In this document: one piece after another, positions 6,352 through 22,267 of the stretch | How positions within the stretch are numbered: position 1 is the first letter of the stretch | Layout of the letters: each line of letters opens with the position of its first letter | Origin: Candidatus Saccharimonadota bacterium | GTDB lineage: Bacteria > Patescibacteriota > Saccharimonadia > Saccharimonadales > SZUA-47 | Direction: 5' to 3' | DNA: 24,000 nt | Assembly (NCBI GenBank): GCA_020428465.1 | Contig: JAGQMY010000047.1 | Coordinates: forward strand, 1 to 24,000 | Program-made: the position numbers and the translations under genes | Notes under the pieces: generated by a model | What the model saw: only the letters and a program-made list of their open reading frames with translations | Database searches by the model: none | What the model was told of the DNA's origin: nothing

Positions 6352-9300
6352 TTACGGCACTCCTGGACCTATGTATCGAGACCAACCACCAGGGTAATCC
6401 GACAGATTACTACTAGTAAACCTAACCGGCTTTCCCCAGGTATTAGTTTCGTAAACTATAATATTGCCACTGGCGTCGGGACTTGAAGCTGCAATGGCAA
6501 CATGTCCACCGGCTGGATTTGACTCGTCGCTATTACATCCAAAACTAATTGTCAAAAAATCTCCGGGGATTATCTCATTTTGATTAACGTGCTCGAATAA
6601 ATCTGGTCTTTGTTGAGATGTCCAGTTCCCTGAGCATCCGACACCTTGATAGTTATATGCTTTAAAAAGCGCAACAGAAGCAAGACCGCTACATTCAAGT
6701 AAGTTATTGGGGCTCAATCCTTCGCTTCTACTTTGTAACCATGATTGTGGTGCTCCGCCATAATTTGAAGATGATGCTGTAAATCCATAAATTTGATTTG
6801 CCGCCACCCCGGAATAGGTGCCATATCCGTTGCCATAGAATGTACCGTCAAACTCCATCGCTGTACATAAAATTCTTTCTGTGTCTGTAACCCCAGATAG
6901 ACATTTTTGTTTAATTTTTAAACAATTATCTTTAATATCCTGACTGTAACTTCTAATGTTAAAGTTATCGGGTGAAAGAACTTCAGTGTATCCATCGCAA
7001 TTTACAATTCTGCCTCCCGCTGTCGAGCTACCTGAGGGTAACGCTATATTATCTAGAAGGTACTGAACCTTTTTTATGTATCCGTCTATTGTGTGATGTA
7101 CGCTATCAGCAAACTCTACATCATCACCGGTGTCCGGTGTAGTTTTTGCATTCTTTACGTATCCATTCCAATCTAGCAATATGATATTTTGACTATCTTG
7201 AAATTGAGAAATTACATCCTCAATTATTGCATTCCTGTCTTCTAGGTTTGAATTGTTATCGGATGACACCAAATTAACGACATAAACGAAAGAATTAGGT
7301 GAAATTTGTTTAATTTGTTTTATCAATTCTGCAAATTTTTCTCTAAAAAGATTCTGGTCAACGTTGCCGCTTGCGTCTACTTCAAGCCTGTTAGTGCCAA
7401 GTCCAACAACAAATGTCCCGGTTTGATTACTCTGTATAATCTGAGTATCGTTTGATAGTGCAGTAATGCCATCAACAATTGTTTCGGAAGGACAGGTTGA
7501 ACCATCACCCGTAATAGGCCCCTGAGTCTGAAATACTGCACGACATCCTTGTGCATTTACTGTGCTTTGCCATCCATGCCCATCAAAAGTTCTTGCAAGA
7601 TAGTTTTTTTCCGGATCGCTACCAGCTAAAGTTTGCATACCCTTAGTTAAAGAGTCTCCCAAAAAATAGATTTGGTTATTAACTGGCGCATCTTCTGGAG
7701 CAGTAAACTCAGACGTCTGAAGCCCAATTTCCGAACAAGATGAATCGTCTCCTTCGCCACATCCTAAACCTAATTCTGTAACTCTATCTGCTAGGTATAA
7801 TCTATAGCGAAGCTGGTCGTCTGTTTTATTGTTGCAATCGGATGAAGTTACGTCATATCTTTCTCTGTCATTATCCACTACGTTAAGTGTTACAGGATCT
7901 ATCTTTTTAGGGAAACATGACCCAAACCTATCATCGAAAGACTGAATATCCGACTCAACAACGTTGGCATTTTCTAATGGATCATCGGCTATCTGACTAT
8001 TTTGTTCAGTTAATGTAAATCCATATTTAGGAAAACCATAGTCAAAGGTATAGTCAGCGGCACTGGCTTTTGTGGTCAAAAAATTAAGTGAATTAAGAGG
8101 GTTTTGAAGTACCAAGCCACCAAATCCCTTCAAATTCATTGGCGTGCTCATTGAAACCCGAGCAACCAAAGAGTCAACATTACTTATGTCAAAATATCTC
8201 TCATAAAGACTTTTTGATTTGTTGTCTAGGGCAATTGTTTGCATCTGGTCTGCGACTAAGGCCTGTTCGTCGCTTTCAGACATTTCTGAACCACCAAAAG
8301 CAAATGATGCCATGTTTGAGGCTATCCTAGCTCCATACATAAGATAATTTCCAAGTTCAGCCCCGACTGCGTATAGATTAATACCTGAACCCGCCAATAT
8401 GTCAACTAACTTTCCTGCAAGCTGATCAGGTGAGAGACCCAAAGGACCGAGAATTGCATTTAGCCCCGCCTGTGATGCTTCGCCTATTTGCTTAAGAACT
8501 GGAAGTCCACCGATAAAATCCTGAACACTACAAATTGTTCCTAATAGCGGAATGTCATCTATTGCCCTGAAAAAGGCTGGCTTCTCGCCTAACTTGCCTG
8601 GCTTTAACTCACTATCTAAATCGGGTCCAGAATCTACACCATTTAGTGATTTTTGAAACGGCTGAGCCATAATTGCATCGGAATTGTTAAGCACATCAAA
8701 TAAATCTTGAGAATAGACCCCAATCTCATCGCTGCTGACATCTTCTCCTGACATTATTTGTGCCCCAAGGGACATGTATGAAGTTGCAACTCTAGCCATG
8801 GGTAAAATTACGTTGGTGTACTGTAAAATTTCCGCTGCATTTCCAAGAGCCTTGACTCCGCATAAAAGAGCAGCGGCTGCTGCTGCGCTTCCGGCGATTC
8901 TACCCGCCACCTTTAGTTTGGCGGCTGCCTTATCGGATATAAAGCTTGGTTTAAGACGATTTTTTTCAGCGGTTTGTGCTACTTCTTCAGCGATATCGTT
9001 TGCTTCGCCAGCAGCAATACTTTCTGGCGTGGTGTCCGGTGTAGTATCAATGTTCCCGTCCCCGTTTGTATCGGTGCCGGTTTTTGGTAGATTAACATCC
9101 GTACTACCATTTGCTACTCTCGCAGCTCTATCTTCTTTGAACTTTAACGCCCACTCAACGAACCTATCGGTCGCCGCTCTTCTCACACTTTGTAACGGAT
9201 GAAGGATATGAAAATCCATCCCGCCATATTTTATTAACAAACGACTTGCTAACTTATCTGGGACACCTTCTATTTCAGCGCCTGCAGTTACAACACGCGC

Positions 9301-10146
9301 CAATGACCTTCGTTTACTTAGCTTTTCGTCGGATACATCTATTATTCTTGAGCCTTGACCCACTCTGTTATTGGAACCATCAAAACTATCTCTTGCTAAC
9401 GATCCGTTTGTGTTATAGCCTTCAGCCTCCAACTTTTTAAGCAAAGGATCAGCTTTTGCAGGATCAACGACCTCATATCCAATAAATCGACGTGTAATTG
9501 GTGAGTAAACAGATTTCAAGCCCGTATTCTTTAGAACGGCCTGGTCCCACTTAACTGCATACCTGCTAGCTATTCTGCCTAATCTTAGATTTTGTACAGA
9601 GTGGGTTTTCAATACTTTATATAAGCTCCAGGTTCTGCCATCCATAAACTCAGAGTTACTTTGAAAGTGAAACCTTTGAAGTAAATTTGCGAAGTGGAGC
9701 ACCTTAAAAGGAGCAAAAGATGCAAATAGTAGGTAAAAAGTAACCACTACGCCACCCAAGCCAACTCCACCTGCAATTGATTTTTTTCTATTTCTCAGTA
9801 TGCCATTTACCAGTTTTGCTGCCGGGTTGGTCCCTTGATTATCTAGCGAAAGGTTGTTAGAAAAAGACTTATCTGGTGTCAGCTTTGATTCAGCATCAGA
9901 ACGCCCAGCATCGTTATTTCCCGATAATGGGTTAATATCCATTTCTTCTACTCCGATGTTTTGACCGGGGCTTTTATTGGGGCTTACTGGTTCGTCGCCA
10001 GATTCATCACTCCAGCCATCGGGATTCCAGAATCCATCAGCGGAGGTGTTATCAGGATTCTGTCTGTTAGCGGGATTCAAAGAATCATCATTATTGTCGG
10101 GTGCGAATCCTTCTTCCTCGCGCTTTTTTAGTGAACCTGGCTGCAT
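6352..10146 (-). CDS. Large membrane-anchored multidomain cell-wall hydrolase (VirB1-analogue candidate): disordered N-terminus, TM, ~650-aa unknown region, SGNH/GDSL esterase, C-terminal NlpC/P60 cysteine peptidase
   Basis: 1264 aa. TM segment GGVGLGGVVVTFYLLFASFAPF. SGNH blocks IYFLGDSLTKG (GDS codons at nt 7651-7659), VVGLGTN and DSVHHT (nt ~7094-7108). NlpC/P60 hallmarks are LLECSGLASVAL (Cys codon 6691-6693), PGDFL and GGHVAIA (His codon 6502-6504). Located immediately downstream of virB4. Confidence 0.75.
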   Translation of the reverse strand: MQPGSLKKREEEGFAPDNNDDSLNPANRQNPDNTSADGFWNPDGWSDESGDEPVSPNKSPGQNIGVEEMDINPLSGNNDAGRSDAESKLTPDKSFSNNLSLDNQGTNPAAKLVNGILRNRKKSIAGGVGLGGVVVTFYLLFASFAPFKVLHFANLLQRFHFQSNSEFMDGRTWSLYKVLKTHSVQNLRLGRIASRYAVKWDQAVLKNTGLKSVYSPITRRFIGYEVVDPAKADPLLKKLEAEGYNTNGSLARDSFDGSNNRVGQGSRIIDVSDEKLSKRRSLARVVTAGAEIEGVPDKLASRLLIKYGGMDFHILHPLQSVRRAATDRFVEWALKFKEDRAARVANGSTDVNLPKTGTDTNGDGNIDTTPDTTPESIAAGEANDIAEEVAQTAEKNRLKPSFISDKAAAKLKVAGRIAGSAAAAAALLCGVKALGNAAEILQYTNVILPMARVATSYMSLGAQIMSGEDVSSDEIGVYSQDLFDVLNNSDAIMAQPFQKSLNGVDSGPDLDSELKPGKLGEKPAFFRAIDDIPLLGTICSVQDFIGGLPVLKQIGEASQAGLNAILGPLGLSPDQLAGKLVDILAGSGINLYAVGAELGNYLMYGARIASNMASFAFGGSEMSESDEQALVADQMQTIALDNKSKSLYERYFDISNVDSLVARVSMSTPMNLKGFGGLVLQNPLNSLNFLTTKASAADYTFDYGFPKYGFTLTEQNSQIADDPLENANVVESDIQSFDDRFGSCFPKKIDPVTLNVVDNDRERYDVTSSDCNNKTDDQLRYRLYLADRVTELGLGCGEGDDSSCSEIGLQTSEFTAPEDAPVNNQIYFLGDSLTKGMQTLAGSDPEKNYLARTFDGHGWQSTVNAQGCRAVFQTQGPITGDGSTCPSETIVDGITALSNDTQIIQSNQTGTFVVGLGTNRLEVDASGNVDQNLFREKFAELIKQIKQISPNSFVYVVNLVSSDNNSNLEDRNAIIEDVISQFQDSQNIILLDWNGYVKNAKTTPDTGDDVEFADSVHHTIDGYIKKVQYLLDNIALPSGSSTAGGRIVNCDGYTEVLSPDNFNIRSYSQDIKDNCLKIKQKCLSGVTDTERILCTAMEFDGTFYGNGYGTYSGVAANQIYGFTASSSNYGGAPQSWLQSRSEGLSPNNLLECSGLASVALFKAYNYQGVGCSGNWTSQQRPDLFEHVNQNEIIPGDFLTISFGCNSDESNPAGGHVAIAASSPDASGNIIVYETNTWGKPVRFTSSNLSDYPGGWSRYIGPGVP

Positions 10147-10158
10147 TTAAACCCCAAA

Positions 10159-12063
10159 TTATTGCTTTAACTCTACGGTATTATTATACCCCGTTTGGTT
10201 GAGGTCTACTTGCTCGGTTTTGACTGGTGGTCTTTTTTCATTTGGGTTAGTTGTTATCAGGTTTGTTTCAGTTGGACTTGCCACAATCTGCATGTGCACA
10301 TGGTTAGATCCGGCGAAGAATAATCCTTGACCAACCGGGAATTGACTAAGGCGTTTTTTCTCTTCACTGGTTAACTTGAAGGTTTGCGCCAGGACATCAA
10401 CAGCAGACGTTGATTGCTTTAACAGAATCTGCATACTTGCATTAGCTACGATTGCTCGTCCCATTCGAGACCCCATAAAGTCCTCGACATCCTGGGTAAT
10501 TGTCGTAATGCCCAGATTATATTTACGAGCTCGTTTGGCTAAACTGAATAAGAAACTAGCGCTATCTTCATATTTCATTAACTGCCACGCCTCATCAACA
10601 ATCAAAATTCTTCGTTTCTGGTCGACTTTAGTCTTATTCCAGATGAAATTCAGCACGATATACATTGCTACCGGGCGAAGCTCATCTTCTAGATCACGAA
10701 TATTAAACACGACCAGAGGGTTGTTAATCTCAATGTTACTAGGTTGGCTAAAAATACCCGCGAACGTTCCGGTTGTATATTTTCGCAACCTTTGAGCTAG
10801 TTGCGGCCCAGAACCTCCAGAGTGCAAAAGTGTATCATACAAACTTGCGATAGTTGGTGCAGGAGAATTATGAGTAAGCGGGTCATTAGTTATGCCAGCT
10901 TTGGCGTATGTTTCTATTAATGCAGCATCAAGATCAGCTTCCTCTTCGGGAGTTAGTGATGGTCGAACTACATCTGATCCTGAAGCCAGAGCTGCGGCTC
11001 CACCCATCATGAGACGCAGTAACCCATGCAATGTGATTAAGTTACTGCGGAGTGCGTTATCGGCCTCTTCAGGGTCAGATACCTTAGGCAAATCGAACGG
11101 ATTTATTCTGGTTTTGCTGTTTAGGCTCAAGCGAACATATGCACCACCGACAGCATCACACATTTTGGCGTATTCATTCTCGGGATCGATAATGAATACC
11201 TCGGTACCGAACATCATACTTCGAAGAGCCTCTAGCTTAACTGTAAAGCTTTTTCCTGCGCCTGATTTGGCAAAGACAACACTGTTACCGTTCTCGAGTG
11301 AGAATCTATCAAAGATAACAAGTCCAGAGTTATGCATGTTTATTCCGTATAAAATACCATTTTCTTGGCTCAAATCAGCACTTGTGAAGGGAAAAGTTGT
11401 ACTTACAGCTCCCGTATTCATGTTGCGTCGAATTTGAAGTTGGTCAGTAAACTGCGGGATTGTTGAGTTGAGTCCTTGCTCTTGTTGGGCTCCTGCTGGT
11501 TTACTATAGACCAGCTGTTGCGCCAAAACGCTCTCAACCTTATGAGATACATACTCCATTTCTTCGGCATCGTTTGCATATATTGTAAAATAAAGACCAA
11601 ATCTAAAGAAGCGCTCTTCTCCAACCTGAAGCTTGTCCCTCAACTCCTCGGCATCGACTATAGCTGCTTGTTTGCCAGGATCGCGCACTTTACCCTTTTC
11701 AGCATCGATTTGCAGACCGGCTTCAAGTTGACCAACTTTCTTACGTAAGTTTTCCAGAACTACTTGGCTTTCAACAGGATATATAAACATCGACATATCT
11801 ATAACTTCATCAAGGTTTATCATACTGCTTAACCAGCCGGTATAAAGTCTACGAGGATAGCCATATACGTAGTACGTTCTTGCTATACGTGTACCGATTT
11901 TGAACTGACTCGATTCGAACTCTAAACTTGCAGGTGCAATGAAATCTCTAAGAGCTGTTACGCCCTTTTCGAATGCAACTTGAACCTCTTGTTGTTCGCG
12001 CAAAGCCTGTGCTTGTGCCTGCGCAACTGGATCGGTTGCTGGTTTTTTGTTAAAAATTCCCAC
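10159..12063 (-). CDS. virB4: T4SS ATPase, VirB4/TrbE/PrgJ family
   Basis: 634 aa. Walker A FAKSGAGKSF (nt ~11248-11268) and Walker B ILIVDEAWQL (nt ~10585-10608). N-domain pattern DFIAP..LEF......IG.R.ART..V.GYPR....GWL is typical of monoderm VirB4 proteins. GTG start with GGGAG 8 nt upstream, overlapping the upstream TAG by 1 nt (TAGTG). Confidence 0.9.
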   Translation of the reverse strand: MGIFNKKPATDPVAQAQAQALREQQEVQVAFEKGVTALRDFIAPASLEFESSQFKIGTRIARTYYVYGYPRRLYTGWLSSMINLDEVIDMSMFIYPVESQVVLENLRKKVGQLEAGLQIDAEKGKVRDPGKQAAIVDAEELRDKLQVGEERFFRFGLYFTIYANDAEEMEYVSHKVESVLAQQLVYSKPAGAQQEQGLNSTIPQFTDQLQIRRNMNTGAVSTTFPFTSADLSQENGILYGINMHNSGLVIFDRFSLENGNSVVFAKSGAGKSFTVKLEALRSMMFGTEVFIIDPENEYAKMCDAVGGAYVRLSLNSKTRINPFDLPKVSDPEEADNALRSNLITLHGLLRLMMGGAAALASGSDVVRPSLTPEEEADLDAALIETYAKAGITNDPLTHNSPAPTIASLYDTLLHSGGSGPQLAQRLRKYTTGTFAGIFSQPSNIEINNPLVVFNIRDLEDELRPVAMYIVLNFIWNKTKVDQKRRILIVDEAWQLMKYEDSASFLFSLAKRARKYNLGITTITQDVEDFMGSRMGRAIVANASMQILLKQSTSAVDVLAQTFKLTSEEKKRLSQFPVGQGLFFAGSNHVHMQIVASPTETNLITTNPNEKRPPVKTEQVDLNQTGYNNTVELKQ

Positions 12064-12869
12064 TATTGTAGCTCCCTCTCAAGTTGTGGCTGAGCAGCGT
12101 GGCCTACGCCCTTTTCAATAACCGGTGCATTCATATCTTCAAAATTCTTGAGCGGCTGACGTGTAGCCGTATCTGGATTGTAGGCATCATAGTAAAGCTC
12201 GATTAATTCCTGGGTATCAAGTGGGATAGAGGCTACGCCAGACTGCTGTAGTCCAGCCATAACGGCTTGGATGCGATTTTTTAACTCTGTTTTTGCTTGC
12301 TCTAGCACCGCTTCGTTGATTACTACTTGTGTATCTTTTTTACCAAATACAGCGGTAAAAAAGTTTTTACTAGCTTTTATGGCTTTCTGCGTGTCCAGTT
12401 GCGGGAAAAAAGGTATAACAACGTAAAATCTCTTATCCATTATGTTGGTCTGCAATGCTAAATTCTCGATAAAGTCTAAGTAGTCGTCCATCAGGAGTGC
12501 GAGCAACATATTATCATGCTCAGAACGAATTTTATCTAGCTTTTCTATATACGGTCGTAGATCGACTTTTTGACTACGGACAAAAATCTGAATCGGAAAG
12601 TATAACGAATTTAGAAAACCTTGGTAGCTGAACTCGACAGCTTCACGCTCCTGGGGGCTCATTAGGTCGAAATTGATACTTTGACAAGCTAAAACAGCTC
12701 GAAAGCTGCCGTCGTTCATTATCACGATACCATCTCGAATCTCGGCAATTTCAAGAGAATTCTGAGTGCTGTTCGGATTCGACTTTACCATAGGTTGAGC
12801 TACAGGTTGACCAGGTACTCCGGGCATGGTCTGCTGAATATTCGGCTGTATCGCTTGGTTTGGATTCAT
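12063..12869 (-). CDS. Soluble T4SS-associated protein of unknown function (reminiscent of a VirB4 N-terminal, non-ATPase domain)
   Basis: 268 aa with no TM and no Walker motif. The Pro/Gln-rich first 40 aa are followed by EIRDGIVIMNDGSFRAVLACQSINFDLMSPQEREAVEFSYQGFLNSLYFPIQIFV, a pattern I associate with N-domains of some Gram-positive VirB4/TraE-type ATPases. AGGTGG SD. Coupled to virB4. Confidence 0.55.
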   Translation of the reverse strand: MNPNQAIQPNIQQTMPGVPGQPVAQPMVKSNPNSTQNSLEIAEIRDGIVIMNDGSFRAVLACQSINFDLMSPQEREAVEFSYQGFLNSLYFPIQIFVRSQKVDLRPYIEKLDKIRSEHDNMLLALLMDDYLDFIENLALQTNIMDKRFYVVIPFFPQLDTQKAIKASKNFFTAVFGKKDTQVVINEAVLEQAKTELKNRIQAVMAGLQQSGVASIPLDTQELIELYYDAYNPDTATRQPLKNFEDMNAPVIEKGVGHAAQPQLERELQ

Positions 12870-12887
12870 TTTCCACCTTTAATCAGG

Positions 12888-14054
12888 TTAGTGTAATTGA
12901 ATAACAACTTCATCTTCATCTGGCTTGTCTCTATCTACCTGCCTAGCTAGAGTGTCCACCGTTAAGTCGTCGTTGCCTGCTAAGTTTAGTATAGCAGGAT
13001 TAACGGGGTGAGTGCTAGGAGTTTGTGTTGTTTGTGGTTGGGATACGGAAGGCTGATTTCCAGATGGATTTTGACCCAAAGGCTGAATGGTTTTCAATCG
13101 ACTATTTGAACTAAACTGAGCATCAAGTTGTTGTTGTTTGTGAACTTTTTGGAGCAAATTTTGCTCATCAGTTGAAGTTATACCAGTATTTGGCTGTATT
13201 GACGGTACTGGCTGGCTTAGCGGAGTTTGTTTTGCAGGAGCTACTAATAAAGGTGGCGTTTTAAAGCTAGCAACAGTAGGATCGGCTTTATTATTCTGGT
13301 TAAGAAACCATAAATCATCGGCGGTCGTTTGATTATTGCTGTTACTTTTTGGTTGAGGAAGTGGCATAGGGTAATTTTGTTGTTGAGTTGCTGGTCCTTG
13401 CTCGGACATCCTTCTCGCCTCTTCAATCATTCCAAGAGTGTCACGGCGGTGTTTCGTATTTGACTGTTCAATCATATTGTCAAATTGACGCGCAAGCGGA
13501 TTGGATGCCTCGTCCATAACATCAACAGTGTTATCTACTAAAACCGTTTTTTCATCTTGTACGTCTGTTGGCAAAGAAACTAACCTATCACTCGTGTCGA
13601 GGTTGCTACGAGTGGATAAACTTGAAAGATTTTTTACTGCCCAGCCCCTACTATCTACAACTGACGCTAGCGCATTAAACCGACTTCTTACTTCGTCAGG
13701 ACTTAGCCCATCAGTTAAATTGTGGTGCTCACGTTTTGGTACGGTTATCTTCACGAGCTCTTTCATCCCGGCTTGATCCCATATGCGTTTTCGCCTTATG
13801 AACATGAACCTAATGTGTGCTGCAAGCCAGAGCTCAGACGGTTGGTCTTTAGTCCAGGGAAATGCCAGGATACCTAATGCTATTGCTGGTAAGCCAAAAA
13901 GCGGAGACAAAAATGCAGCTCCTTTTGAGATGGTGATAAAAGTTAACCAACCGAACATTGCCGTCCCACCAAAGAATAGAAACTGCCGAAATGTTAGGGG
14001 GCCTAAAAACTTATCTTCTGCCTCAACATCTTGAGGTACCTTATACACAGCCAT
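12888..14054 (-). CDS. PrgI-family (VirB3-like) T4SS membrane protein with ~280-aa low-complexity C-terminal extension
   Basis: 388 aa. The N-terminus MAVYKVPQDVEAEDKFLGPLTFRQFLFFGG plus two TM helices (AMFGWLTFITI.., LFGLPAIALGILAF) matches the PrgI-family signature (KVP.D...EDK....LT.RQ). It sits two genes upstream of virB4. The remainder is rich in Q/P/N/S/T. Confidence 0.65.
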   Translation of the reverse strand: MAVYKVPQDVEAEDKFLGPLTFRQFLFFGGTAMFGWLTFITISKGAAFLSPLFGLPAIALGILAFPWTKDQPSELWLAAHIRFMFIRRKRIWDQAGMKELVKITVPKREHHNLTDGLSPDEVRSRFNALASVVDSRGWAVKNLSSLSTRSNLDTSDRLVSLPTDVQDEKTVLVDNTVDVMDEASNPLARQFDNMIEQSNTKHRRDTLGMIEEARRMSEQGPATQQQNYPMPLPQPKSNSNNQTTADDLWFLNQNNKADPTVASFKTPPLLVAPAKQTPLSQPVPSIQPNTGITSTDEQNLLQKVHKQQQLDAQFSSNSRLKTIQPLGQNPSGNQPSVSQPQTTQTPSTHPVNPAILNLAGNDDLTVDTLARQVDRDKPDEDEVVIQLH

Positions 14055-14189
14055 ATGGCTATAGTATAAAACAGTTAATGCATATAAAGAAACCTAAGGA
14101 TGTTATAACAAGTAACTATAAATTCATGTTGTTTTGGTGTGTGGATTTTATTTAAATGACTAGTAGATAACTAATACTTACTGGTTTGA

Positions 14190-15992
14190 CTATGCGTTGT
14201 CAGGATCGCCGTTATTTTGTTGCTGTTCCTGCTGTCTTCTATATTCCTCGCGACGTCGATTTCTCGCATCAATTAGCGCTTGCTCCCACTCTTGTTGTTT
14301 CCGTTGTTTGCGGCCTGCTTTTAGTTGTTCGTTGTTGTCCTCAACGCGCCTTCGTCTTACTTTTCTTGCGTCTGATCTTTGGCGCCTTCTTAGTTGTTTT
14401 AGTTTTCCGCGATCTTCTGGCTTTGCCGGACTCAAAGACGCTCTGCTGTCTTTTGTTGTAATTTTGATATTTTCCCGTCTTATCCTGCTTAAAGCTGCTT
14501 GCTCGTCAAAACCTTTCAAATTTCCGAATGTATCAATCCATTCTTGTCTTTCCGCCTCCAGGAAGTAGTAGTTACTTGCGTTTAAGATCGATAATTCCTT
14601 TTGATCAATATACTTAAGGTTAGGGAACAATTCACACGCGACATCTGTTATAGCTGCAACCTTTTCCCAGTTCTTCTCGGCTAATGCCGTACCACCGGTA
14701 CGTAATGGCTGGCCGTCAAAGAATAACTGACCAGTTTTCTTATTAAATCTCACAGGTGGCATTGATAGTAAACCTCTGGCGCCCAACTTATCTCTAAGTG
14801 CATGCGCACCAGCATCATCCCCTTCGGGATTGATGTTAGATCCATATCTAAGAATTGAGATAATCATCGCTGCTCTTTGCAGAATAAACTGTGACCTAAT
14901 GAATTCTTCCGATGTTGGTTCTACGGCTTTTTCTATGGTGGTCTCAAGTGCTGTATTAACTATTGTAGTTAGGTTCGCTATGTCTACTGCACTAAATCCT
15001 GATAGCTCGTAAGACCTTATCTTCGCAGCCATTTCCTGGATAAATTTAACCCCATCAACACCCCTATACTCATACTCACCCTTTGCGTTAATTGCATAGT
15101 ATAAGTGCCTAAACGACAAGTGCTGACCTTTGTGTGCGTAACCTATTCCCAAAATCAGTCCCGCAATATCTCTATCTGTAAATGGCCCGCCTTCAAACGA
15201 GTATTGCCTTCGTTTAGCGGCTTCGTTTACTAATTCGAATGTTCTCTTGATTGTCTCTATAAATTGAAGTTCATGAGATGATTTGTGTATCTCATACCAA
15301 AAAGCTGCCGCAAACGCTGAAGGGTCTTGGAACCACTGTTGTCTAGCTTGAGCAACTTGTGCTGCATTGTAAGTTTTGTTTGGGTCGTGTATATCAATCC
15401 ATACTCCTGGTCTATCTGGTGACTCTCGAGCGAACAAAGCACGGATTAGTTCATCTGGACCGGTACTTTCCTTATTGTGCATAAGCTCCATGAAAAGTTT
15501 GTTAGCTTTAGCACGTCTTTCGTCTTGGTTTGTAAAGTTTTCGGTGTTACCAAAATAAATAACACCAGCTTTTCTAACGAACCTCTCGAGTCTCCTGAGT
15601 GGTGCGCCACCAGCTCCTTCAGGTTTGATTCCAGCTCTTTTTACTGCTTCCATGGTTGGAATGGGGTAAGCTTTACCGACCTCTGCAGTTTCGTAACTTG
15701 TCGAAATTCTTGCCCTGTCTTTTGACGATGCGGGCACATTTGAATCGCCTATAAACATTCTTTTTGCTGCTTCAGCAAGCATTCTAAACGTATCAGGGTC
15801 GGATGTATCAAGCTCTTCGTTCACGCCGGGCATACTAAGTGCTGATTGACCTATCAATGCTCGTAACATACTCGGATCAACATCACCCAAACGCGCCATA
15901 TCCGACGGCAATACTAACCCTGATTCAGTCTGTTGCCAATCGAGGCGGGGGTCTTGTGGAACCTGGGGGTTCTGTGGATTAGGGCTGTCCAT
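14190..15992 (-). CDS. Soluble 600-aa protein of unknown function with Arg/Lys/Gln-rich C-terminal tail
   Basis: Long ORF with no TM, no signal peptide and no NTPase motif. The last ~100 aa (nt ~14190-14490) read ...KLKQLRRRQRSDARKVRRRRVEDNNEQLKAGRKQRKQQEWEQALIDARNRRREEYRRQQEQQQ. Embedded between the VirB6-like and PrgI-like genes on the same strand. Confidence 0.7.
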   Translation of the reverse strand: MDSPNPQNPQVPQDPRLDWQQTESGLVLPSDMARLGDVDPSMLRALIGQSALSMPGVNEELDTSDPDTFRMLAEAAKRMFIGDSNVPASSKDRARISTSYETAEVGKAYPIPTMEAVKRAGIKPEGAGGAPLRRLERFVRKAGVIYFGNTENFTNQDERRAKANKLFMELMHNKESTGPDELIRALFARESPDRPGVWIDIHDPNKTYNAAQVAQARQQWFQDPSAFAAAFWYEIHKSSHELQFIETIKRTFELVNEAAKRRQYSFEGGPFTDRDIAGLILGIGYAHKGQHLSFRHLYYAINAKGEYEYRGVDGVKFIQEMAAKIRSYELSGFSAVDIANLTTIVNTALETTIEKAVEPTSEEFIRSQFILQRAAMIISILRYGSNINPEGDDAGAHALRDKLGARGLLSMPPVRFNKKTGQLFFDGQPLRTGGTALAEKNWEKVAAITDVACELFPNLKYIDQKELSILNASNYYFLEAERQEWIDTFGNLKGFDEQAALSRIRRENIKITTKDSRASLSPAKPEDRGKLKQLRRRQRSDARKVRRRRVEDNNEQLKAGRKQRKQQEWEQALIDARNRRREEYRRQQEQQQNNGDPDNA

Positions 15993-16053
15993 ATTTAAAA
16001 CATTAGCACATTATTGCAAAAAAGTAAAGAAGTTTATAGTAAAACAATCAATC

Positions 16054-18690
16054 TTATGACGGATTCCAAGGTGTTGCGGTACCCCCTCCATCATCTTCGT
16101 CATCGGGAGTTGCATCGCCTGCAGCTGCTTGAGCAGGATCGGCAAAGTTAGTGTTTTGACCAGCTAATGTTGCTTGACTTGTTGTGGGATCGCTTGGGAT
16201 TGGCGATGGGGCTACGGGGGTTGGAGGGGATTCTAGTGGCGAATCTGGGTTAAATGCACCACTGTTTTCTTCCTCTGTAACGGCTCTGTCTGCTCGCCTG
16301 GCCCTTCTGTCTTGTCTATATTTTCTTGCTTTTTCTCTTGCACCCCTTACTGTTGGGTGCCAGCCTCGAGCTACTTGCACCGCAGCATTATACGTTTTCA
16401 AATCTCTTACATAGGCTTCTTGTTGCCTTGTGTACTCCTCTTTCTCGGCCGCACCAGCATCATCTCTAGGAGGCGTTGGAGCTTCAGGTTTTTTTGGCAT
16501 TCCCTGCTTAAGCAGAGTTAGCCCGCCACGACCCACCCTAAAATCTGCCCAGTGCAAAGCTCTGTTGCTATGCGACTCTAGTCGGGCATCACGCATACTT
16601 GCACGGGTGTGATTAACTTGATGTCGTCTGCTGGATTGATCATACTCGCTTCCCATGAATTTCTCGTATCGCTTCTTGTTAAAGCCAGTTATAGCACCTG
16701 ATATTGACGATATTGCGCCCCCAGCGAGCTTAAAGGCAAACGGTATTAAGAAAAACGGTATAAAGAGCACTACCAAAGCTACAAACTGATTTATTGTATA
16801 CGAGCCCCCATCACCAGCTGCACTGAACATCATCATTGATAGAAGATCGGCTATAGCAAAAATAGCCATTATTATCGGATAAACCATAAGTGTTTTGATA
16901 AACAAATCAAACCATTTTTTAGCGTACTTTTCCGTACCGGGAATAGCATATAAAGCTAGCGCTATTGGAGATATGACCGCTAAAAGAATAACTAAACCAC
17001 GACGAATAACTATAGTTCCAAAAATAGCAATAGTAGTTAAAAGCATGGGTATTAAGAACGAGTAAAGTAATAATGTGAAGAAGCCACCGGTTGTGAAGAA
17101 GCCGAGGAGAAACTTGCCGCCCAGATACGTAGCAAAAAGTCCCCCAAGACTGAGTAGTTGATTTGGCTTGAATGAGAAACTCCCAGCCCCACCTAACGGA
17201 GCAGTTATAAGTTGGCCAATACCCCTACCTAACACATTAAACACATCTACCGATAGTGCAACAATGAAATACGATATATTTATAAGAATTGCTGCAATTA
17301 AAATTCTTGGCATTGCCTTTTTAGCCGTGTAAGCATCAACCAGTCCACCACCTATAGCTTGACCGAATACGATTACTAGCAGTGCGATGACGAGTATTAT
17401 ATTGCCTAATGTCCTGAATCCTCTCCACACCTGGTATGCTGTGTCATTTGACTCGGTGGTTAAGGGGCTAGTGACGAGGAAAGGTTCTATAATCGAGTGA
17501 AACATCCAGTCTATGCCATCAAGTGCGCCGTTGACAATGGGACAAAAAAGAAAGGCTAACGAGAACCCAGAACTCTCGCAAGTCGGGGTGTCTTCACCGG
17601 TTTCGAGATTAAAGGAACCTGCTTGTTCCTCACCAGTGCCTGCTTCTTTATTGGCATTTTCGTTATCTAATAGCGGATAGCTCACTCCTGTAATTGGCGG
17701 AACACGATAGTAGTCATGAGATTGAAACGTACCAGCTTTATCTACATCTTCTCTGACATCAACAACCTGACAATCAGAAATATTTATTGCGCTTATACCC
17801 CATTCTGAAGCTGGTTTTTGTGAACCGTAAGCGTCTCCGTCACTAAGTGAACCATTTGCAACTAATATGTAGTATTTCATCGTAGCAGGATTGGTTGATT
17901 TATCGACGATTATTACATCATCACATGGACCCACCTCGTCTGCTCTAAAGACATTAGGTTCGCTTGAGTCTTGAACAAAGGGAGTAGGAATATTTTTTAT
18001 GGAAGTTGCATGATCGCTCTCGACTATTCTAATTGTCAAATCTACTGCTGGTTCAATCTTTGCACTATCTACCCAGCGAAAATAAGCAGTACTGAATTGG
18101 GTGTTTTTAACCGATATGCTACCAGTATTATCAACCTTATTTCCGTCACTGTCTATGTGGGTATTTAAATCACCGGAGTCTTTGCACTCTGTTCCATCAG
18201 AATTGTAGAAATCGATATCGGTTTTAACCTTGGTAAGTGGTGTGTTGTCTAAAAAATTATCTTGATTGGTTATACTATCGGCAATGAATGTAATCTTATT
18301 ATAACAAGACGAAGGCCAGCCCTGTATCTCATAATCTGTACTTTGTCTGTGGTTACCATCAGTAAGGCTCGTTCTCTGGGCGATAACACCTTTGGCATCA
18401 CCATGGCCGTCTTTCGGTACTACGTCATAACTAATTCCTGGTTTTGTTTTAAAAGTTAGTTTAGCAAGACCGGCATTTACCCAAGTAAATTCAAATATAT
18501 CGGCCGGATTGCCAATAATCCTTCCCTTACTGTCTGTGGTTAAACCGTACGTTTCAGGTACAGCTACTCCATTTTCCGCGGCCTTAGCTGTCTGAAATAG
18601 CCCGTTCACAATGAAAGAGTTAAGAATAAATATAATGAATATTAAAAATATAAATATTCTCTTTTGTTTTTTTACGATAGGAAAAACCAT
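16054..18690 (-). CDS. TrbL/VirB6-like polytopic T4SS channel protein with large N-terminal ectodomain and ~200-aa charged C-terminal tail
   Basis: 878 aa. Signal/anchor IFIFLIFIIFILNSFIVNGLFQTAKA, then a ~340-aa ectodomain. At least 6 hydrophobic helices follow, including the ISPIALALYAIPGTEKYAKKW..L...M.YP block typical of TrbL/VirB6. The tail (nt 16054-16680) is rich in R/E/P. Confidence 0.7.
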   Translation of the reverse strand: MVFPIVKKQKRIFIFLIFIIFILNSFIVNGLFQTAKAAENGVAVPETYGLTTDSKGRIIGNPADIFEFTWVNAGLAKLTFKTKPGISYDVVPKDGHGDAKGVIAQRTSLTDGNHRQSTDYEIQGWPSSCYNKITFIADSITNQDNFLDNTPLTKVKTDIDFYNSDGTECKDSGDLNTHIDSDGNKVDNTGSISVKNTQFSTAYFRWVDSAKIEPAVDLTIRIVESDHATSIKNIPTPFVQDSSEPNVFRADEVGPCDDVIIVDKSTNPATMKYYILVANGSLSDGDAYGSQKPASEWGISAINISDCQVVDVREDVDKAGTFQSHDYYRVPPITGVSYPLLDNENANKEAGTGEEQAGSFNLETGEDTPTCESSGFSLAFLFCPIVNGALDGIDWMFHSIIEPFLVTSPLTTESNDTAYQVWRGFRTLGNIILVIALLVIVFGQAIGGGLVDAYTAKKAMPRILIAAILINISYFIVALSVDVFNVLGRGIGQLITAPLGGAGSFSFKPNQLLSLGGLFATYLGGKFLLGFFTTGGFFTLLLYSFLIPMLLTTIAIFGTIVIRRGLVILLAVISPIALALYAIPGTEKYAKKWFDLFIKTLMVYPIIMAIFAIADLLSMMMFSAAGDGGSYTINQFVALVVLFIPFFLIPFAFKLAGGAISSISGAITGFNKKRYEKFMGSEYDQSSRRHQVNHTRASMRDARLESHSNRALHWADFRVGRGGLTLLKQGMPKKPEAPTPPRDDAGAAEKEEYTRQQEAYVRDLKTYNAAVQVARGWHPTVRGAREKARKYRQDRRARRADRAVTEEENSGAFNPDSPLESPPTPVAPSPIPSDPTTSQATLAGQNTNFADPAQAAAGDATPDDEDDGGGTATPWNPS

Positions 18691-18803: not shown

Positions 18804-19538
18804 ATGCAAAAAATAAAACATATCCAACCCAAAGCAATTCAAATAATATTTACACTTTCCTCGGCTTTATTACTCACATTACTAATCAGACCTAGCTATG
18901 CAAGCGCAGCTCTATCACCAGGCTGTTACATACAAGGACCCTCGGGTGGCTATACAGAGCATGATTGTGTGAATAGTGACACTGACCCAAATACTCAATG
19001 CGAGATTACGATCAGTTCTAGGAGCGGCCCCTCAACTACTACGATTAAAGATTGTGATACTTTAAGTCAGCCGACACAGAGTGATGGGGGTACGAGTGGT
19101 GGTACAGATACTAATCCAGGATCAGCAAACCTAAACTGTACAAGTGGTGGCTCATCTGATATTTGTAGCCCAATAAGTCCTGGAGGCGAAACAAGCACCT
19201 CCACAGGCACCGATGGTAAACAATGCGGTCGCGGTGAATCAGCTGTTGTTTTGAGCATTTCTATCGGTTGTAGGGGTAATGACTGGCCAGGCGTAGATTC
19301 TGTTAATCCTATCATAGATATGGTTTTAGCAGTGGTAAGATTCCTGAGTTTGGGTGTTGGAGTCGTAGTAGTTGGATCGATTATTTGGGCTGGGATCCAA
19401 TATTCCACATCAAGAGGTGACCCCCAAGCAGTTTCAGCATCTATAAATAGGGTTACAAATTCATTTATAGCATTATTGTTGTATATATTTATCTTTGCGA
19501 TTGCAAACTTTTTAGTTCCGGGGGGCATGTTTATATGA
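18804..19538 (+). CDS. T4SS pilin-like protein (VirB2/TrbC topology), enlarged paralog 1 with Cys/Ser/Thr/Gly-rich ectodomain
   Basis: 244 aa. Signal peptide ...LLIRPSYASA, a ~130-aa S/T/G-rich region with about nine Cys, then the TM hairpin LAVVRFLSLGVGVVVVGSIIWAGIQYSTSRGDPQAV...FIALLLYIFIFAIANFLV shared with the downstream paralogs. Confidence 0.7.
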   Translation: MQKIKHIQPKAIQIIFTLSSALLLTLLIRPSYASAALSPGCYIQGPSGGYTEHDCVNSDTDPNTQCEITISSRSGPSTTTIKDCDTLSQPTQSDGGTSGGTDTNPGSANLNCTSGGSSDICSPISPGGETSTSTGTDGKQCGRGESAVVLSISIGCRGNDWPGVDSVNPIIDMVLAVVRFLSLGVGVVVVGSIIWAGIQYSTSRGDPQAVSASINRVTNSFIALLLYIFIFAIANFLVPGGMFI

Positions 19539-19984
19539 TAAAGAAGCTTATTTCTAAGTTTCTATTGTTCCAACTCGGCGTATTTATATTTGTGCCTATT
19601 ACAAACATTGGTGTCGCAAGTGCTGCAGATTCGGGATGTACTGGTGGAAGTTTCTTAGGTTTTCCAACTTGGTATGAGTATTTAGATAAACAATCAGTCC
19701 CAAATGACATTACGACCGACCCAAATGATGAAATATGCGAGCTAAAGGTAGACAATATTAAAGACTTCTGGCTTATCGCACTCGCCGTGATAGAGATACT
19801 GCTTAGGGTAGCATCTATTCTTGCGGTAGGTATGCTAATTTATGGTGGAGTTAGTTATGTGATTAGCGAGGGTAATCCTGAAAAAACTAAAAAAGCACAA
19901 AGCACTATTATTAATGCAATCGTAGGTCTAGCCATAAGTATAGTAGCGGCATCTGTCATCGGGTTCGTTGCGAGGAGTTTTTGA
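19535..19984 (+). CDS. T4SS pilin-like protein, paralog 2
   Basis: 149 aa. Signal peptide ..NIGVASA/AD, Cys pair (SGC...EIC), TM1 LAVIEILLRVASILAVGMLIYGG, loop VSYVISEGNPEKTKKA, TM2 IINAIVGLAISIVAASVIGFV. ATGA overlap with paralog 1. Confidence 0.75.
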   Translation: MIKKLISKFLLFQLGVFIFVPITNIGVASAADSGCTGGSFLGFPTWYEYLDKQSVPNDITTDPNDEICELKVDNIKDFWLIALAVIEILLRVASILAVGMLIYGGVSYVISEGNPEKTKKAQSTIINAIVGLAISIVAASVIGFVARSF

Positions 19985-19987
19985 TTT

Positions 19988-20320
19988 ATGAATTATCTAT
20001 TATTAAATAGTCGTTTATCACAGCTTAAAAATTGTAACCCTGGTTCCGGAAATACGGAAAATGTTAATTGCAATACCACCTTACCTGACGTGTCGGCGAG
20101 TAGTGACACCTTATCTAAAGTTTTGCCTATTTTGTTCGGCACAATTACTGCTATAGCGGTTCTTATTATTGTTGTTCAGGGGATACGTTTTGTTTTGAGC
20201 AAGGGTGAACCGGATAAAGCACTGCAAGCTCGAAAGGGTGTTATTTATGCTGCAGTTGGCCTTGCCGTTGTCTTTATGGCAGACATAATTGTCGCATTTA
20301 TTTTAAAGAGGTTCCTATAA
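19988..20320 (+). CDS. T4SS pilin-like protein, paralog 3 (no recognisable signal peptide)
   Basis: 110 aa. Same C-terminal hairpin (ITAIAVLIIVVQGIRFVLSKGEPDKALQARKGVIYAAVGLAVVFMADIIV) and a Cys pair (NCNPGSGNTENVNC). The N-terminus MNYLLLNSRLSQLK lacks a hydrophobic signal core. GAGGAG SD upstream. Confidence 0.65.
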   Translation: MNYLLLNSRLSQLKNCNPGSGNTENVNCNTTLPDVSASSDTLSKVLPILFGTITAIAVLIIVVQGIRFVLSKGEPDKALQARKGVIYAAVGLAVVFMADIIVAFILKRFL

Positions 20321-20739
20321 TGCGAAAAATTTCACTCTTTATTTTATGCATGCTATCGTTGTCATTTAGTGTTTTTACCACATTCATACCTGTTGCTGGT
20401 GCTGTTGATCTGAATAGTGAAGTATGTACCACTTCAGATCCTGCCAATCGCCCAAGTATCTGTAATGATTTAGATCCCCTTAGTCCTGAAGCCAAAAATG
20501 TAAATCCACTCTATGGTCCCGAAGGCATTATTACTAGGGCAGTCAACGGGCTTTCTCTTTTAGCGGGATTGATATCTGTAATTATGATAATAATCGCCGG
20601 AATAAAGGTTAGCATGTCAACTGGTGATGCTGGTAAGATTAAAGCGGCGCGAGATCAAATTATTTACGCCATAGTTGGGTTGATCGTAGCAGGATTAGCT
20701 CAAGCAATTGTAAGGCTACTGCTAAACAGGATTGGATAA
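20320..20739 (+). CDS. T4SS pilin-like protein, paralog 4
   Basis: 139 aa. Signal peptide ..IPVAGA/VD, Cys pair (EVC...SIC), hairpin LLAGLISVIMIIIAGIKVSMSTGDAGKIKAARDQIIYAIVGLIVAGLAQAIV. TAATG overlap with paralog 3 and AAGAGG SD. Confidence 0.75.
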   Translation: MRKISLFILCMLSLSFSVFTTFIPVAGAVDLNSEVCTTSDPANRPSICNDLDPLSPEAKNVNPLYGPEGIITRAVNGLSLLAGLISVIMIIIAGIKVSMSTGDAGKIKAARDQIIYAIVGLIVAGLAQAIVRLLLNRIG

Positions 20740-20768
20740 TAGAATATGAAAAGGAGTATCAATCAATA

Positions 20769-21233
20769 ATGAAACGAATAATATATGGGTTTTTCGGAAT
20801 TCTTTTATCTGTGGGAATATTTATATTGCCCGTAACAGTTAATGCGAGCCCATTTGACTCGGCAAGAGATACGGCTTGCCAAGGTCTAGAATTTAGCGAT
20901 GGAGACAGCACTACTTGTGATACCAGCGATGGTACAAAGATAAACTCTACCGTGGCAACAGCGATCAACTTAATTTCGCTCGTGGTTGGATTTGTGTCCG
21001 TAATTATGGTAATAGTTGGTGGTCTAAAATACACAACTTCGCATGGTGATTCAAGCGGAATTAGTAGTGCTAAGGACACTATTCTTTATGCAATAATTGG
21101 CCTAATAATCGTCGCAATGGCCCAATTGATGGTAAGGTTTGTACTAAGTAAAACAGCAGATAATAGTTCAGATAGCCCAGGCGTAGGATCGTCCATTAAC
21201 GATTGTGCTCCAGGGCAAACTCCACCATGCTAG
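20769..21233 (+). CDS. T4SS pilin-like protein, paralog 5 (extra Cys-containing C-terminal tail)
   Basis: 154 aa. Signal peptide ..VTVNA/SP, Cys pair (ACQGLEFSDGDSTTC), hairpin LVVGFVSVIMVIVGGLKYTTSHGDSSGISSAKDTILYAIIGLIIVAMAQLMV, then the tail ...SSINDCAPGQTPPC. AAAGGAG SD. Confidence 0.8.
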   Translation: MKRIIYGFFGILLSVGIFILPVTVNASPFDSARDTACQGLEFSDGDSTTCDTSDGTKINSTVATAINLISLVVGFVSVIMVIVGGLKYTTSHGDSSGISSAKDTILYAIIGLIIVAMAQLMVRFVLSKTADNSSDSPGVGSSINDCAPGQTPPC

Positions 21234-21255
21234 GATTGCTATAGTAATCGTGTTA

Positions 21256-21264
21256 TGTTATAAA
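21256..21264 (+). promoter_or_regulatory. Candidate extended -10 promoter element for pilin paralog 6
   Basis: TGTTATAAA, that is TG-n-TATAAA, lies in the 65-nt spacer before the 21299 start. No convincing -35. AT-rich context makes chance matches likely. Confidence 0.3.
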
Positions 21265-21298
21265 CTAATTAAACTAAATAAAAGGAATTAAAAAAGTC

Positions 21299-21715
21299 AT
21301 GAACAGAATCAAAAGAGTAATTATCAGCCTAATAGCGGTACTTGGTTTAGCAGTACCAATGTTCGCACCAGCAGTCGCTTCAGCAGCAGAAATCGACAAT
21401 AACCTATCATGTGGAGCTAACTTAGATTTCACAAATTCTGGTGGTGATTGTGAATCAAATAATAAAGACGGTGATGCAAGCTCAAGAGTTCAAAAAATAG
21501 TTACAAACATTATCAACATCGTATCTCTAGTAGTCGGTGTCGCTGCAGTCATTATGATAATGGTTGGGGGCTTGCGCTATATCACCTCTAATGGTGATTC
21601 TGGCCAAGTTGGAAACGCTAAGAACACAATTCTTTATGCTGTAGTTGGTCTTATTGTTGTAGCTCTAGCTCAAATCATTGTGCGATTTGTAGTTAACAAA
21701 GCAACAACTGCTTAA
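21299..21715 (+). CDS. T4SS pilin-like protein, paralog 6 (candidate major pilin)
   Basis: 138 aa. Signal peptide ..APAVASA/AE, Cys pair (LSCGANLDFTNSGGDC), hairpin LVVGVAAVIMIMVGGLRYITSNGDSGQVGNAKNTILYAVVGLIVVALAQIIVRFV. Has its own upstream spacer and a downstream hairpin. Confidence 0.8.
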   Translation: MNRIKRVIISLIAVLGLAVPMFAPAVASAAEIDNNLSCGANLDFTNSGGDCESNNKDGDASSRVQKIVTNIINIVSLVVGVAAVIMIMVGGLRYITSNGDSGQVGNAKNTILYAVVGLIVVALAQIIVRFVVNKATTA

Positions 21716-21735
21716 TTAAAACAGATAATTCAGAT

Positions 21736-21767
21736 AAAGCACTTTCGCAGAAGCCGGAAGTGCTTTT
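21736..21767 (+). terminator. Candidate intrinsic terminator after pilin paralog 6
   Basis: AAAGCACTT (21736-21744) pairs with AAGTGCTTT (21758-21766) around a 13-nt loop, followed by a short T run. The stem is only moderately GC-rich and the loop is long, so it may be a partial terminator or attenuator. Confidence 0.45.
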
Positions 21768-21823
21768 CAGTTGTATGTAATTTATGCTAATCTTATTCTT
21801 AGAAACAAGGAGTAAATCTAAAA

Positions 21824-22267
21824 GTGAAAAGACTCAAATCAATCATTTATACATTAGCTATCGCAATAGGAATTGCAGCACCATTAGCTATTGCATCGCC
21901 AGCTGGTGCACAAGATATAGAAAAAAATCTACAATGTGGTGCTAATCTCAAATTTTCGATGGCCGATGGCAGCTGTGAAGTGGATAATAACGGTAATACT
22001 GCAGCTGAAAGAATCGACCAGATTGTTTCACAAGTAATCAATTTGCTGTCACTAGCAGTTGGAGTTGTAGCAGTAATCATGATTATCGTCGGTGGATTCA
22101 AATACATTACATCTGGGGGTGATTCAGGTAATGTTACGGGCGCAAAGAACACTATACTTTACGCTGTAGTAGGGCTAATTGTCGTAGCTTTGGCACAAGT
22201 AATCGTAAGATTCGTGGTAGACCGCGCTACACTAACTGGTAATACAACCGGATCAGCTACCGATTAG
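21824..22267 (+). CDS. T4SS pilin-like protein, paralog 7 (close duplicate of paralog 6)
   Basis: 147 aa. GTG start with AAGGAG 11 nt upstream. Signal peptide ..ASPAGA/QD, Cys pair (LQCGANLKFSMADGSC), hairpin LAVGVVAVIMIIVGGFKYITSGGDSGNVTGAKNTILYAVVGLIVVALAQVIVRFV, near-identical to paralog 6. Confidence 0.8.
   Translation: MKRLKSIIYTLAIAIGIAAPLAIASPAGAQDIEKNLQCGANLKFSMADGSCEVDNNGNTAAERIDQIVSQVINLLSLAVGVVAVIMIIVGGFKYITSGGDSGNVTGAKNTILYAVVGLIVVALAQVIVRFVVDRATLTGNTTGSATD

Follow-up and report, generated by a model that had tools for sequence, protein, structure and literature searches.

Gene content of the locus

The stretch of DNA considered here (the window) is a 24,000-nucleotide chromosomal segment, contig JAGQMY010000047.1 of assembly GCA_020428465.1, from a metagenome-assembled genome (MAG) of Candidatus Saccharibacteria (Patescibacteria). 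The subject of this analysis is the gene at positions 14190-15992 of its minus strand, hereafter the target, which lies within an operon for a type IV secretion system (T4SS) and probably encodes a cytoplasmic part of the channel subunit VirB6 as a separate polypeptide. The window starts with dnaN and recF, and the minus-strand T4SS operon comes next, with the gene order VirB6/TrbL-like protein, target, PrgI/VirB3, TrsD/TraC-like protein, VirB4, a 1264-aa GDSL-domain protein, a 222-aa protein and an M14 peptidase-domain protein. A divergent array of pilin genes lies on the other side of VirB6, and genes for HSP20 and then for a phosphoribosyltransferase are found beyond it. A preliminary description of the sequence had placed the target between a VirB6-like and a PrgI-like gene on the same strand, and this arrangement was confirmed (16054-18690 and 12888-14054, both on the minus strand). 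The locus is a chromosomal, MPF-FATA-related Patescibacteria T4SS of the kind described in PMC12102498. Such clusters carry neither a relaxase nor a coupling protein (PMC10633639, PMC12102498), and no VirD4-type coupling protein (T4CP) is encoded within the 24-kb window.

The VirB6/TrbL-like protein begins with an N-terminal signal/transmembrane (TM) segment, continues with an extracellular domain of ~360 aa and a TM block (aa ~396-661), and ends in a Pro-rich, partly basic cytoplasmic tail of 217 aa. It aligns with TrbL (PF04610) over nearly the full length, at a sub-threshold level (E 0.07-1); its match to CD3337/EF1877 is weak, and PF19590 (TrbL_3) is on record for its homologues. Because the Pfam support is weaker, the VirB6 assignment leans also on context and on structure-based annotation (PMC10633639). 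The start of this gene differs between annotations, giving 878 aa (JGI, and the longest open reading frame (ORF) here) or 851 aa (NCBI MCA9346698.1). The coordinates of the target, its parts and the neighbouring T4SS genes are collected in Table 1.

Table 1. Positions in the window of the target, the parts of its product and the adjacent T4SS genes
Feature	Position	Strand	Basis
Target, 600 aa (MCA9346697.1, KC960_04360; annotated 'hypothetical protein' at NCBI)	14190..15992	(-)	Homology and synteny
Target aa 1-73, Pro/Gln-rich N-terminal region, predicted disordered	15774..15992	(-)	Predicted local distance difference test (pLDDT) <50 in full-length model
Target aa 74-135, N-terminal segment	15588..15773	(-)	A2 consensus; pLDDT 78-93 at aa ~90-120
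Target aa 152-350, domain A, common to the post-TM C-terminal domain of VirB6/TrbL	14943..15539	(-)	phmmer, hhalign; pLDDT ~85-95
Target aa 351-512, domain B, helical, common to standalone members only	14457..14942	(-)	Motifs RTGG, W....A...D.A...FPN.KY
Target aa 520-595, Arg/Lys/Gln/Glu-rich tail (18 R, 7 K, 12 Q, 12 D+E in 76 aa)	14208..14435	(-)	Composition; helix prediction
VirB6/TrbL-like channel subunit, 878 aa	16054..18690	(-)	TM block matches fused VirB6, E 1e-47 to 1e-100
PrgI/VirB3-like protein, 388 aa	12888..14054	(-)	PF12666, E 3.4e-13
TrsD/TraC-like protein (VirB4 N-terminal-domain homologue, own gene)	12063..12869	(-)	NCBIfam TrsD, 2e-6; VirB4 N-terminal matches
VirB4 ATPase, 634 aa	10159..12063	(-)	NCBIfam conju_CD1110, E 4e-106; PF19044
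Seven VirB2-like T4SS pilin genes, divergent array	18804..22267	(+)	PF18895 matches on 7/7

Composition and predicted structure of the target protein

The target is an intact ORF of 600 aa with an ATG start. Its maximum Kyte-Doolittle hydropathy over 19 residues is 1.06, against ~1.6 expected for a TM segment, and a sequence scan found no TM segment, no hydrophobic N-terminal h-region or signal peptide and no Walker A motif, in agreement with the preliminary description of a protein without TM segment, signal peptide or NTPase motif. The Arg-rich C-terminal tail described there is equally evident. The last 100 residues contain 31% K+R, 16% D+E and 12% Q and have a net charge of +15, while the best 80-aa segment reaches 36% K+R, compared with a mean of 9.1% (sd 4.4%, max 25%) in the other proteins of the window. 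All motifs quoted from the tail (RRRQRSDARKVRRRRVED, RKQRKQQEWEQ and RNRRREEYRRQQEQQQ) were found. No other stretch of the window is as basic as the tail, which lies far beyond background; the second most basic is aa 728-807 of the VirB6 tail, with 25% K+R. The basic run of the target (aa ~520-585) lies 25-80 residues from the end, and its last 10 residues are acidic or neutral.

The full-length AlphaFold2 model, built from an 18-row alignment, has a mean pLDDT of 67.8 and consists of a disordered region (aa 1-73) and a well-predicted, mainly helical core. The core model (aa 70-500, 22-row alignment) reached a pLDDT of 80.8 and a predicted TM-score (pTM) of 0.76. Residues 527-593 are modelled as one long helix (pLDDT ~90), whose hydrophobic positions are too sparse to make a classical coiled coil. 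Among homologues, the equivalent of the disordered region varies in length and sequence (alignments A2 and A3), and the segment at aa 74-135 has the consensus F..VA.A....F...TN.P..SKD..RI...YE.A....YPIPTM, which is kept in the closer standalone homologues. Domain A is marked by the motifs TG.D..[IV]RALFA, DG.W, [FY]S..DV..AR, PS..QAA..YE[IL].K, G[IV]GY....L.[FL]KH and F.QE.A..F.SY.

Scans with Pfam, NCBIfam, PHROGs and PADLOC gave no match to the target. Compared with PDB sequences, both as a single protein and as a 22-sequence profile, it returned nothing meaningful (best E 1.5). Foldseek searches with the full-length and core models against PDB and BFVD gave no match below E 0.2, with TM <0.2 and generic helical-repeat noise only. 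The remote homology and structure search proposed in the preliminary description, carried out as a PDB profile search and as Foldseek with the core (aa 70-500), thus yielded no relative. No NTPase, relaxase, nuclease or known nucleic-acid-binding domain was detected in the Pfam, NCBIfam and PDB profile searches or by Foldseek against PDB. The target also shows no TrbL match in Pfam and no TM-like segment; it is not a VirB6 family member in the Pfam sense and is homologous only to an accessory domain of Saccharibacteria VirB6.

Homology to the cytoplasmic domain of VirB6

In related loci, the last TM helix of VirB6 is followed by a domain to which residues ~152-350 of the target are homologous. 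Searched exhaustively with phmmer, 1.84 billion cluster representatives yielded 27 homologue clusters, and no homologue was found outside them. Twelve of the 27 are polytopic membrane proteins of 626-1243 aa that match aa ~140-350 of the target only. The match starts 60-80 residues after the last TM helix in all 12, and their TM blocks match the VirB6 of the window at E 1e-47 to 1e-100. The remaining clusters are soluble proteins of 320-1078 aa; the close ones match the target over aa ~70-560, and the distant ones in two blocks (~150-300 and ~315-470). The target had been called an orphan in the preliminary description, and this label is wrong because the 27 clusters, about half of them VirB6 proteins, exist despite empty curated libraries.

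The homology of domain A was obtained in several ways. The phmmer E values are 1e-12 to 1e-17 locally and 1e-4 to 1e-9 against the 1.84 billion proteins. When the standalone family was compared with the C-terminal regions of the membrane proteins, hhalign gave a probability of 99.8% (E 7.4e-29, 184 columns), with target residues 152-350 placed on positions 75-260 of 386. Moreover, the shared motifs are evident by eye in the alignments, including AR..[WY]G..PS..QAA..YE[IL].K. Further hhalign comparisons found no match of aa 74-135 to the linker and C-terminus of the fused VirB6 proteins and detected no counterpart of domain B in their C-terminus. In a neighbour-joining tree of domain A, the standalone copies form one clade and the fused copies another, which fits a single ancient fission or fusion event, in either direction. 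Two short 'soluble' sequences sit in the fused clade and would most simply be truncated gene calls.

The basic cluster of the tail is present in the standalone homologues P0002-P0010, down to ~28% identity, in a partly alignable pattern ([KR]-run, HRR, D.R, NN). Most of the close standalone relatives have 21-31 K+R in the last 100 aa, compared with 5-13 in the fused VirB6 proteins. In P0002 the cluster falls within the last ~30 residues, that is, at the terminus. The more distant standalone members P0012, P0013 (L015:6001-9159), P0021 and P0022, of 586-1078 aa, carry an insertion of ~100-180 residues between the LKH and F.QE.A..F.SY motifs of domain A, and some of them have large N-terminal extensions; the VirB6 upstream of P0013 ends in an Ala/Lys-rich tail of 330 aa. 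The split form had one match among 185,579 GTDB species representatives (L006, a Saccharibacteria MAG), and a metagenome scan gave five loci, three of them new. Word-indexed homology search is nearly blind to this family, with 4-5 matches for the protein and for profile A1 and none for profile A4.

Split and fused architectures at one operon position

Genomic context was compared for eight standalone proteins from separate loci, ranging from 96% to ~20% identity (the target, P0001, P0003, P0004, P0007, P0008, P0011 and P0013), and for six distinct domain-bearing VirB6 proteins, also from separate loci (P0014, P0015, P0016, P0018, P0029 and one in L025). Two architectures occupy the same operon position and are mutually exclusive: either a VirB6 with the domain is followed by PrgI, or a VirB6 without the domain is followed by the target gene and then PrgI. 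The standalone gene is directly upstream of PrgI in 8/8 loci, and VirB6 is directly upstream of the standalone gene wherever the contig reaches that far. A conserved linkage to T4SS loci, on which the preliminary description made its proposals depend, therefore held for every standalone protein in the set. In the fused loci (6/6), PrgI comes directly after VirB6 with no gene between, and several of those with long enough contigs have the same phosphoribosyltransferase-HSP20-pilin flank as the window.

The domain itself follows the same division. With a domain-A hidden Markov model (HMM), the fused VirB6 proteins score E 1e-66 to 1e-73, and with filters off the model found nothing (E >0.3) in five split-locus VirB6 proteins (window, L001, L005, L014 and L015), the window VirB6 giving E 0.49. 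In other words, domain A stands at the VirB6-PrgI junction either fused or as the next gene and never both, without exception in the eight split and six fused loci. The standalone gene is single-copy in the window and in every locus examined. The post-TM tail of VirB6 is 217-330 aa long, Pro- or Ala-rich and of low complexity in split loci, and 368-456 aa long with a folded domain in fused loci. The split would have arisen by gene fission or fusion, as judged from these sequences.

Selection on the target gene

A close strain, L026, served as a reference, being 97% identical over 7.9 kb (window 10200-18000 against L026:1-7919). Between the two, the target gene shows 27 synonymous and 25 non-synonymous differences, and the dN/dS of 0.25 indicates purifying selection; the target is therefore a functional gene. 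Within it, change is faster in the tail than in the core. That the gene is a pseudogene or an artefact of a frameshift was considered and rejected: the ORF is intact in 8 lineages, its dN/dS is 0.25, and next to it VirB6 ends in a long tail of its own, without the domain.

Along the same comparison, the DNA of PrgI, TrsD and VirB4 is 100% identical (about 3.9 kb, 0 mismatches), the target gene shows 1-6% divergence (dS 0.07), and VirB6 shows 3-12% divergence with indels (dS 0.18-0.24). The divergence has a sharp boundary in the intergenic region between the target and PrgI (~14100-14190). Such a pattern resembles a mosaic made by recombination, with VirB6 and the target varying apart from the ATPase module. 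The VirB6 tail of split loci (window 16057-16707, aa 662-878) is poorly conserved between lineages, yet it is under purifying selection between close strains.

A probable detached cytoplasmic module of VirB6

The target is probably the cytoplasmic C-terminal module of an extended, TrbL-type VirB6, here encoded by a gene of its own. VirB6 of model systems has its C-terminus in the cytoplasm (PMC6120205), the residues following the last TM helix of VirB6 are basic, and the target has no export signal; the module is therefore expected on the cytoplasmic side, near PrgI/VirB3, TrsD and VirB4. Moreover, since the two parts are fused in sister lineages, physical association is to be expected by Rosetta-stone logic, with the target as a stoichiometric peripheral subunit and not as cargo. 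In this form, it most likely belongs to the machine as a subunit at the periphery of the inner-membrane complex, rather than being something that the machine would secrete. The cytoplasmic recruitment or adaptor factor of the preliminary description can be kept in a modified sense, as a cytoplasmic module; the idea of an independent adaptor falls, given the homology to the C-terminal domain of VirB6.

In mechanistic terms, the free protein would assemble non-covalently on the cytoplasmic face of the inner-membrane complex formed by VirB6, PrgI (VirB3) and TrsD-VirB4. The parts found in standalone members only, namely aa 74-135, domain B and the basic helix (aa ~520-595), could replace the lost covalent tether, and they might do so by binding the cytoplasmic tail of VirB6, another subunit or anionic lipid. 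The presence of the basic tail in closer standalone relatives and its absence from the fused forms suggests such a docking tether. The module itself might then form a vestibule or a platform for docking in the cytoplasm, placed between VirB4 and the channel, and might take part in substrate reception where no local coupling protein is available; this role is plausible and is our best guess. A pairing of the acidic C-terminal end of the window VirB6 (DDEDD) with the basic tail was also considered and dropped, as DDEDD is not conserved in other split loci.

Several observations weigh against the assignment to VirB6. Only ~200 of the 600 residues are common to VirB6, and domain B, the N-terminal segment and the tail are without counterpart there; given these unshared parts, the free protein may have gained a different role. 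Between the close strains the tail alone has 7 non-synonymous and 2 synonymous changes, which are small counts, and its composition is kept as its sequence drifts. The sequence of the tail is thus loosely constrained, as would be expected for a charge-based function of any kind. Additionally, the VirB6 tail of split loci (217-330 aa, low-complexity) is itself under selection (dN/dS 0.33), which a simple one-step fission does not predict.

Alternative explanations

Substrates of the Agrobacterium T4SS (VirE2/VirF-type) carry positively charged, Arg-rich C-terminal signals, and on this model the target would be a secreted substrate or effector, its folded body being the cargo and its Arg-rich tail a VirB/VirD4-type translocation signal. 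The likeness lies in the Arg-rich C-terminal region: the tail is strongly basic, it evolves faster than the core, and the terminal cluster of homologues such as P0002 formally resembles the Agrobacterium signals. The body, however, is a VirB6 domain, homologous to one that is covalently anchored to VirB6 in sister lineages, and its place between two core genes is fixed and syntenic in 8/8 loci with one copy each, unlike typical variable effector repertoires. The target ends in 10 acidic or neutral residues, with the basic run internal, and the window encodes no coupling protein of the VirD4 type, which would act as receptor for such signals; a distant T4CP homologue of S. epibionticum is reported to be non-essential (PMC12102498). 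The preliminary description had listed a secreted effector among its proposals on the strength of the tail charge, and we consider this unlikely. A factor that binds nucleic acids, with a basic helix that would hold DNA or RNA, deliver it to the channel and stand in for relaxase and coupling protein, is slightly less probable still. A locus without relaxase or T4CP (window; PMC10633639, PMC12102498) and an Arg-rich helix with a net charge of about +11 to +15 would suit this role. Nevertheless, Pfam, NCBIfam and PDB profile searches detected no nucleic-acid-binding, nuclease, relaxase or NTPase domain, and the tail has no recognisable DNA-binding motif beyond its charge. Because the fused orthologues are without the basic tail, the function conserved in the shared module cannot be to bind nucleic acids. 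In S. epibionticum, ComEC-dependent DNA uptake is also separable from the essentiality of the T4SS (PMC12857230, reviewing PMC10633639). The carrier or binder proposed earlier finds the tail charge in its favour and no known binding domain, and the suggested replacement of VirD4 and relaxase functions is contradicted by a protein with no Walker A motif and no match to a relaxase or any other entry of Pfam, NCBIfam or PDB.

The origin of the split can also be told differently, the target being what is left of a second VirB6 paralogue after loss of the membrane part, rather than the product of a split in a single VirB6 gene. Such a paralogue is known from S. epibionticum ML1, where SEML1_0011 (998 aa), the second VirB6-like protein, has a C-terminal helical-repeat domain and is encoded directly upstream of PrgI, the position of the target; the long tails kept by the VirB6 proteins of split loci would fit as well. 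Under this history VirB6 must have lost the domain and the paralogue its TM block, which makes two events, and all six fused loci have one VirB6 gene and no second paralogue, so that it appears improbable. A paralogue origin would lead to the same functional conclusion, since the protein would still be the free cytoplasmic domain of VirB6. One more speculative version of the detached VirB6 module deserves mention, although the odds are clearly against it: the module might be a mobile subunit cycling between cytoplasm and channel, acting as the substrate receptor of a T4SS without coupling protein, with a basic helix that would bind acidic or nucleic-acid cargo, or might be translocated itself. 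If true, a mobile receptor would be a novel way for a type IV secretion system to recruit its substrates, and the system concerned is essential to Patescibacteria living as epibionts.

Relation to known systems and significance

The closest known counterparts are the extended VirB6 proteins of Saccharibacteria and Patescibacteria T4SSs, such as SEML1_0011 and SEML1_0013 (PMC10633639, PMC12102498, PMC12857230); the homology of domain A was established with related metagenomic loci. These systems have the same operon, the same site next to dnaN/recF and the same pilin array, PrgI, TrsD and VirB4 as the window. The target differs from the extended VirB6 in being a separate gene without a TM block and in having the N-terminal segment, domain B and the basic tail, which are absent from the fused forms. 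In Southlakia epibionticum, transposon sequencing (Tn-seq) showed that epibiotic growth requires the T4SS cluster, in which two VirB6-like proteins with helical-repeat domains at their C-terminus are included (PMC10633639, Tables S1/S2).

A second parallel is offered by TrsD and VirB4, whose split (PMC12102498) likewise places a domain of a core subunit in its own gene beside its partner in the same operon. The protein and the fold are different, and TrsD is already described and widespread in Patescibacteria, whereas the VirB6 split is found only in a subset of Saccharibacteria-like loci. Beyond Patescibacteria, a comparison can be made with a Gram-positive system.

TcpH of Clostridium perfringens pCW3 is VirB6-like and has a cytoplasmic domain at its C-terminus through which it contacts other Tcp proteins; it is a single polypeptide and works with the coupling protein TcpA. 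Its interactions are mentioned in PMC4840375. The likeness lies in the layout, where a sizeable cytoplasmic domain for protein-protein contacts comes after a polytopic VirB6-like block in a monoderm T4SS. In contrast to the case described here, TcpH is unsplit and uses TcpA, and no sequence similarity between it and the target was detected.

What the window contains is a split variant of a known T4SS subunit carrying an undescribed domain, and not a new kind of system. The T4SS of Patescibacteria is the first shown to be essential for its own carrier, and the role of the hydrophilic extensions of 'extended VirB6' is stated to be not known (PMC12857230, the former point in reviewing PMC10633639). 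The 'hypothetical protein' MCA9346697.1 can now be annotated as part of VirB6, and a previously unnamed cytoplasmic domain of VirB6 is defined, one that has no Pfam entry, can be folded with confidence and has no solved structural relative. With a natural pair of split and fused forms, the two parts can be predicted to interact physically, and biochemical work on the machine's cytoplasmic face gains a handle that is soluble and expressible. Comparisons of gene content are corrected as well, because loci with an apparent extra gene hold the same parts in another arrangement.

Further observations on neighbouring genes

In the PrgI of the window, PF12666 covers the first ~90 residues only, and the other ~300 are Gln/Pro/Ser/Thr-rich and of low complexity; the PrgI proteins of relatives are similarly long (332-429 aa). 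For the TrsD/TraC-like protein, relatives have PF26593 on record, and in the window the stop codon of its gene and the GTG start of VirB4 share a single base (TAGTG). The split of VirB4 is a known trait of Patescibacteria T4SSs (PMC12102498), and within this operon it parallels the split of VirB6. In the JGI contig that encodes a protein identical to P0003 (L002:12000-16200), PrgI, TrsD and VirB4 are broken into six short ORFs, and they are intact in the sister contig L001; the locus is either decaying or was assembled with many frameshifts.

The large, presumed wall-active proteins encoded downstream of VirB4 (window 6352-10146 and 3990-5720) are unlike those of relatives. The 1264-aa protein has an SGNH/GDSL hydrolase domain, and its C-terminus weakly matches a CHAP endolysin (8tw1, E 0.0095); the M14 carboxypeptidase-domain protein is likewise found downstream of VirB4. 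At the same position, relatives encode proteins with GDSL and VanY, VanY, Peptidase_C39_2 or SLT domains.

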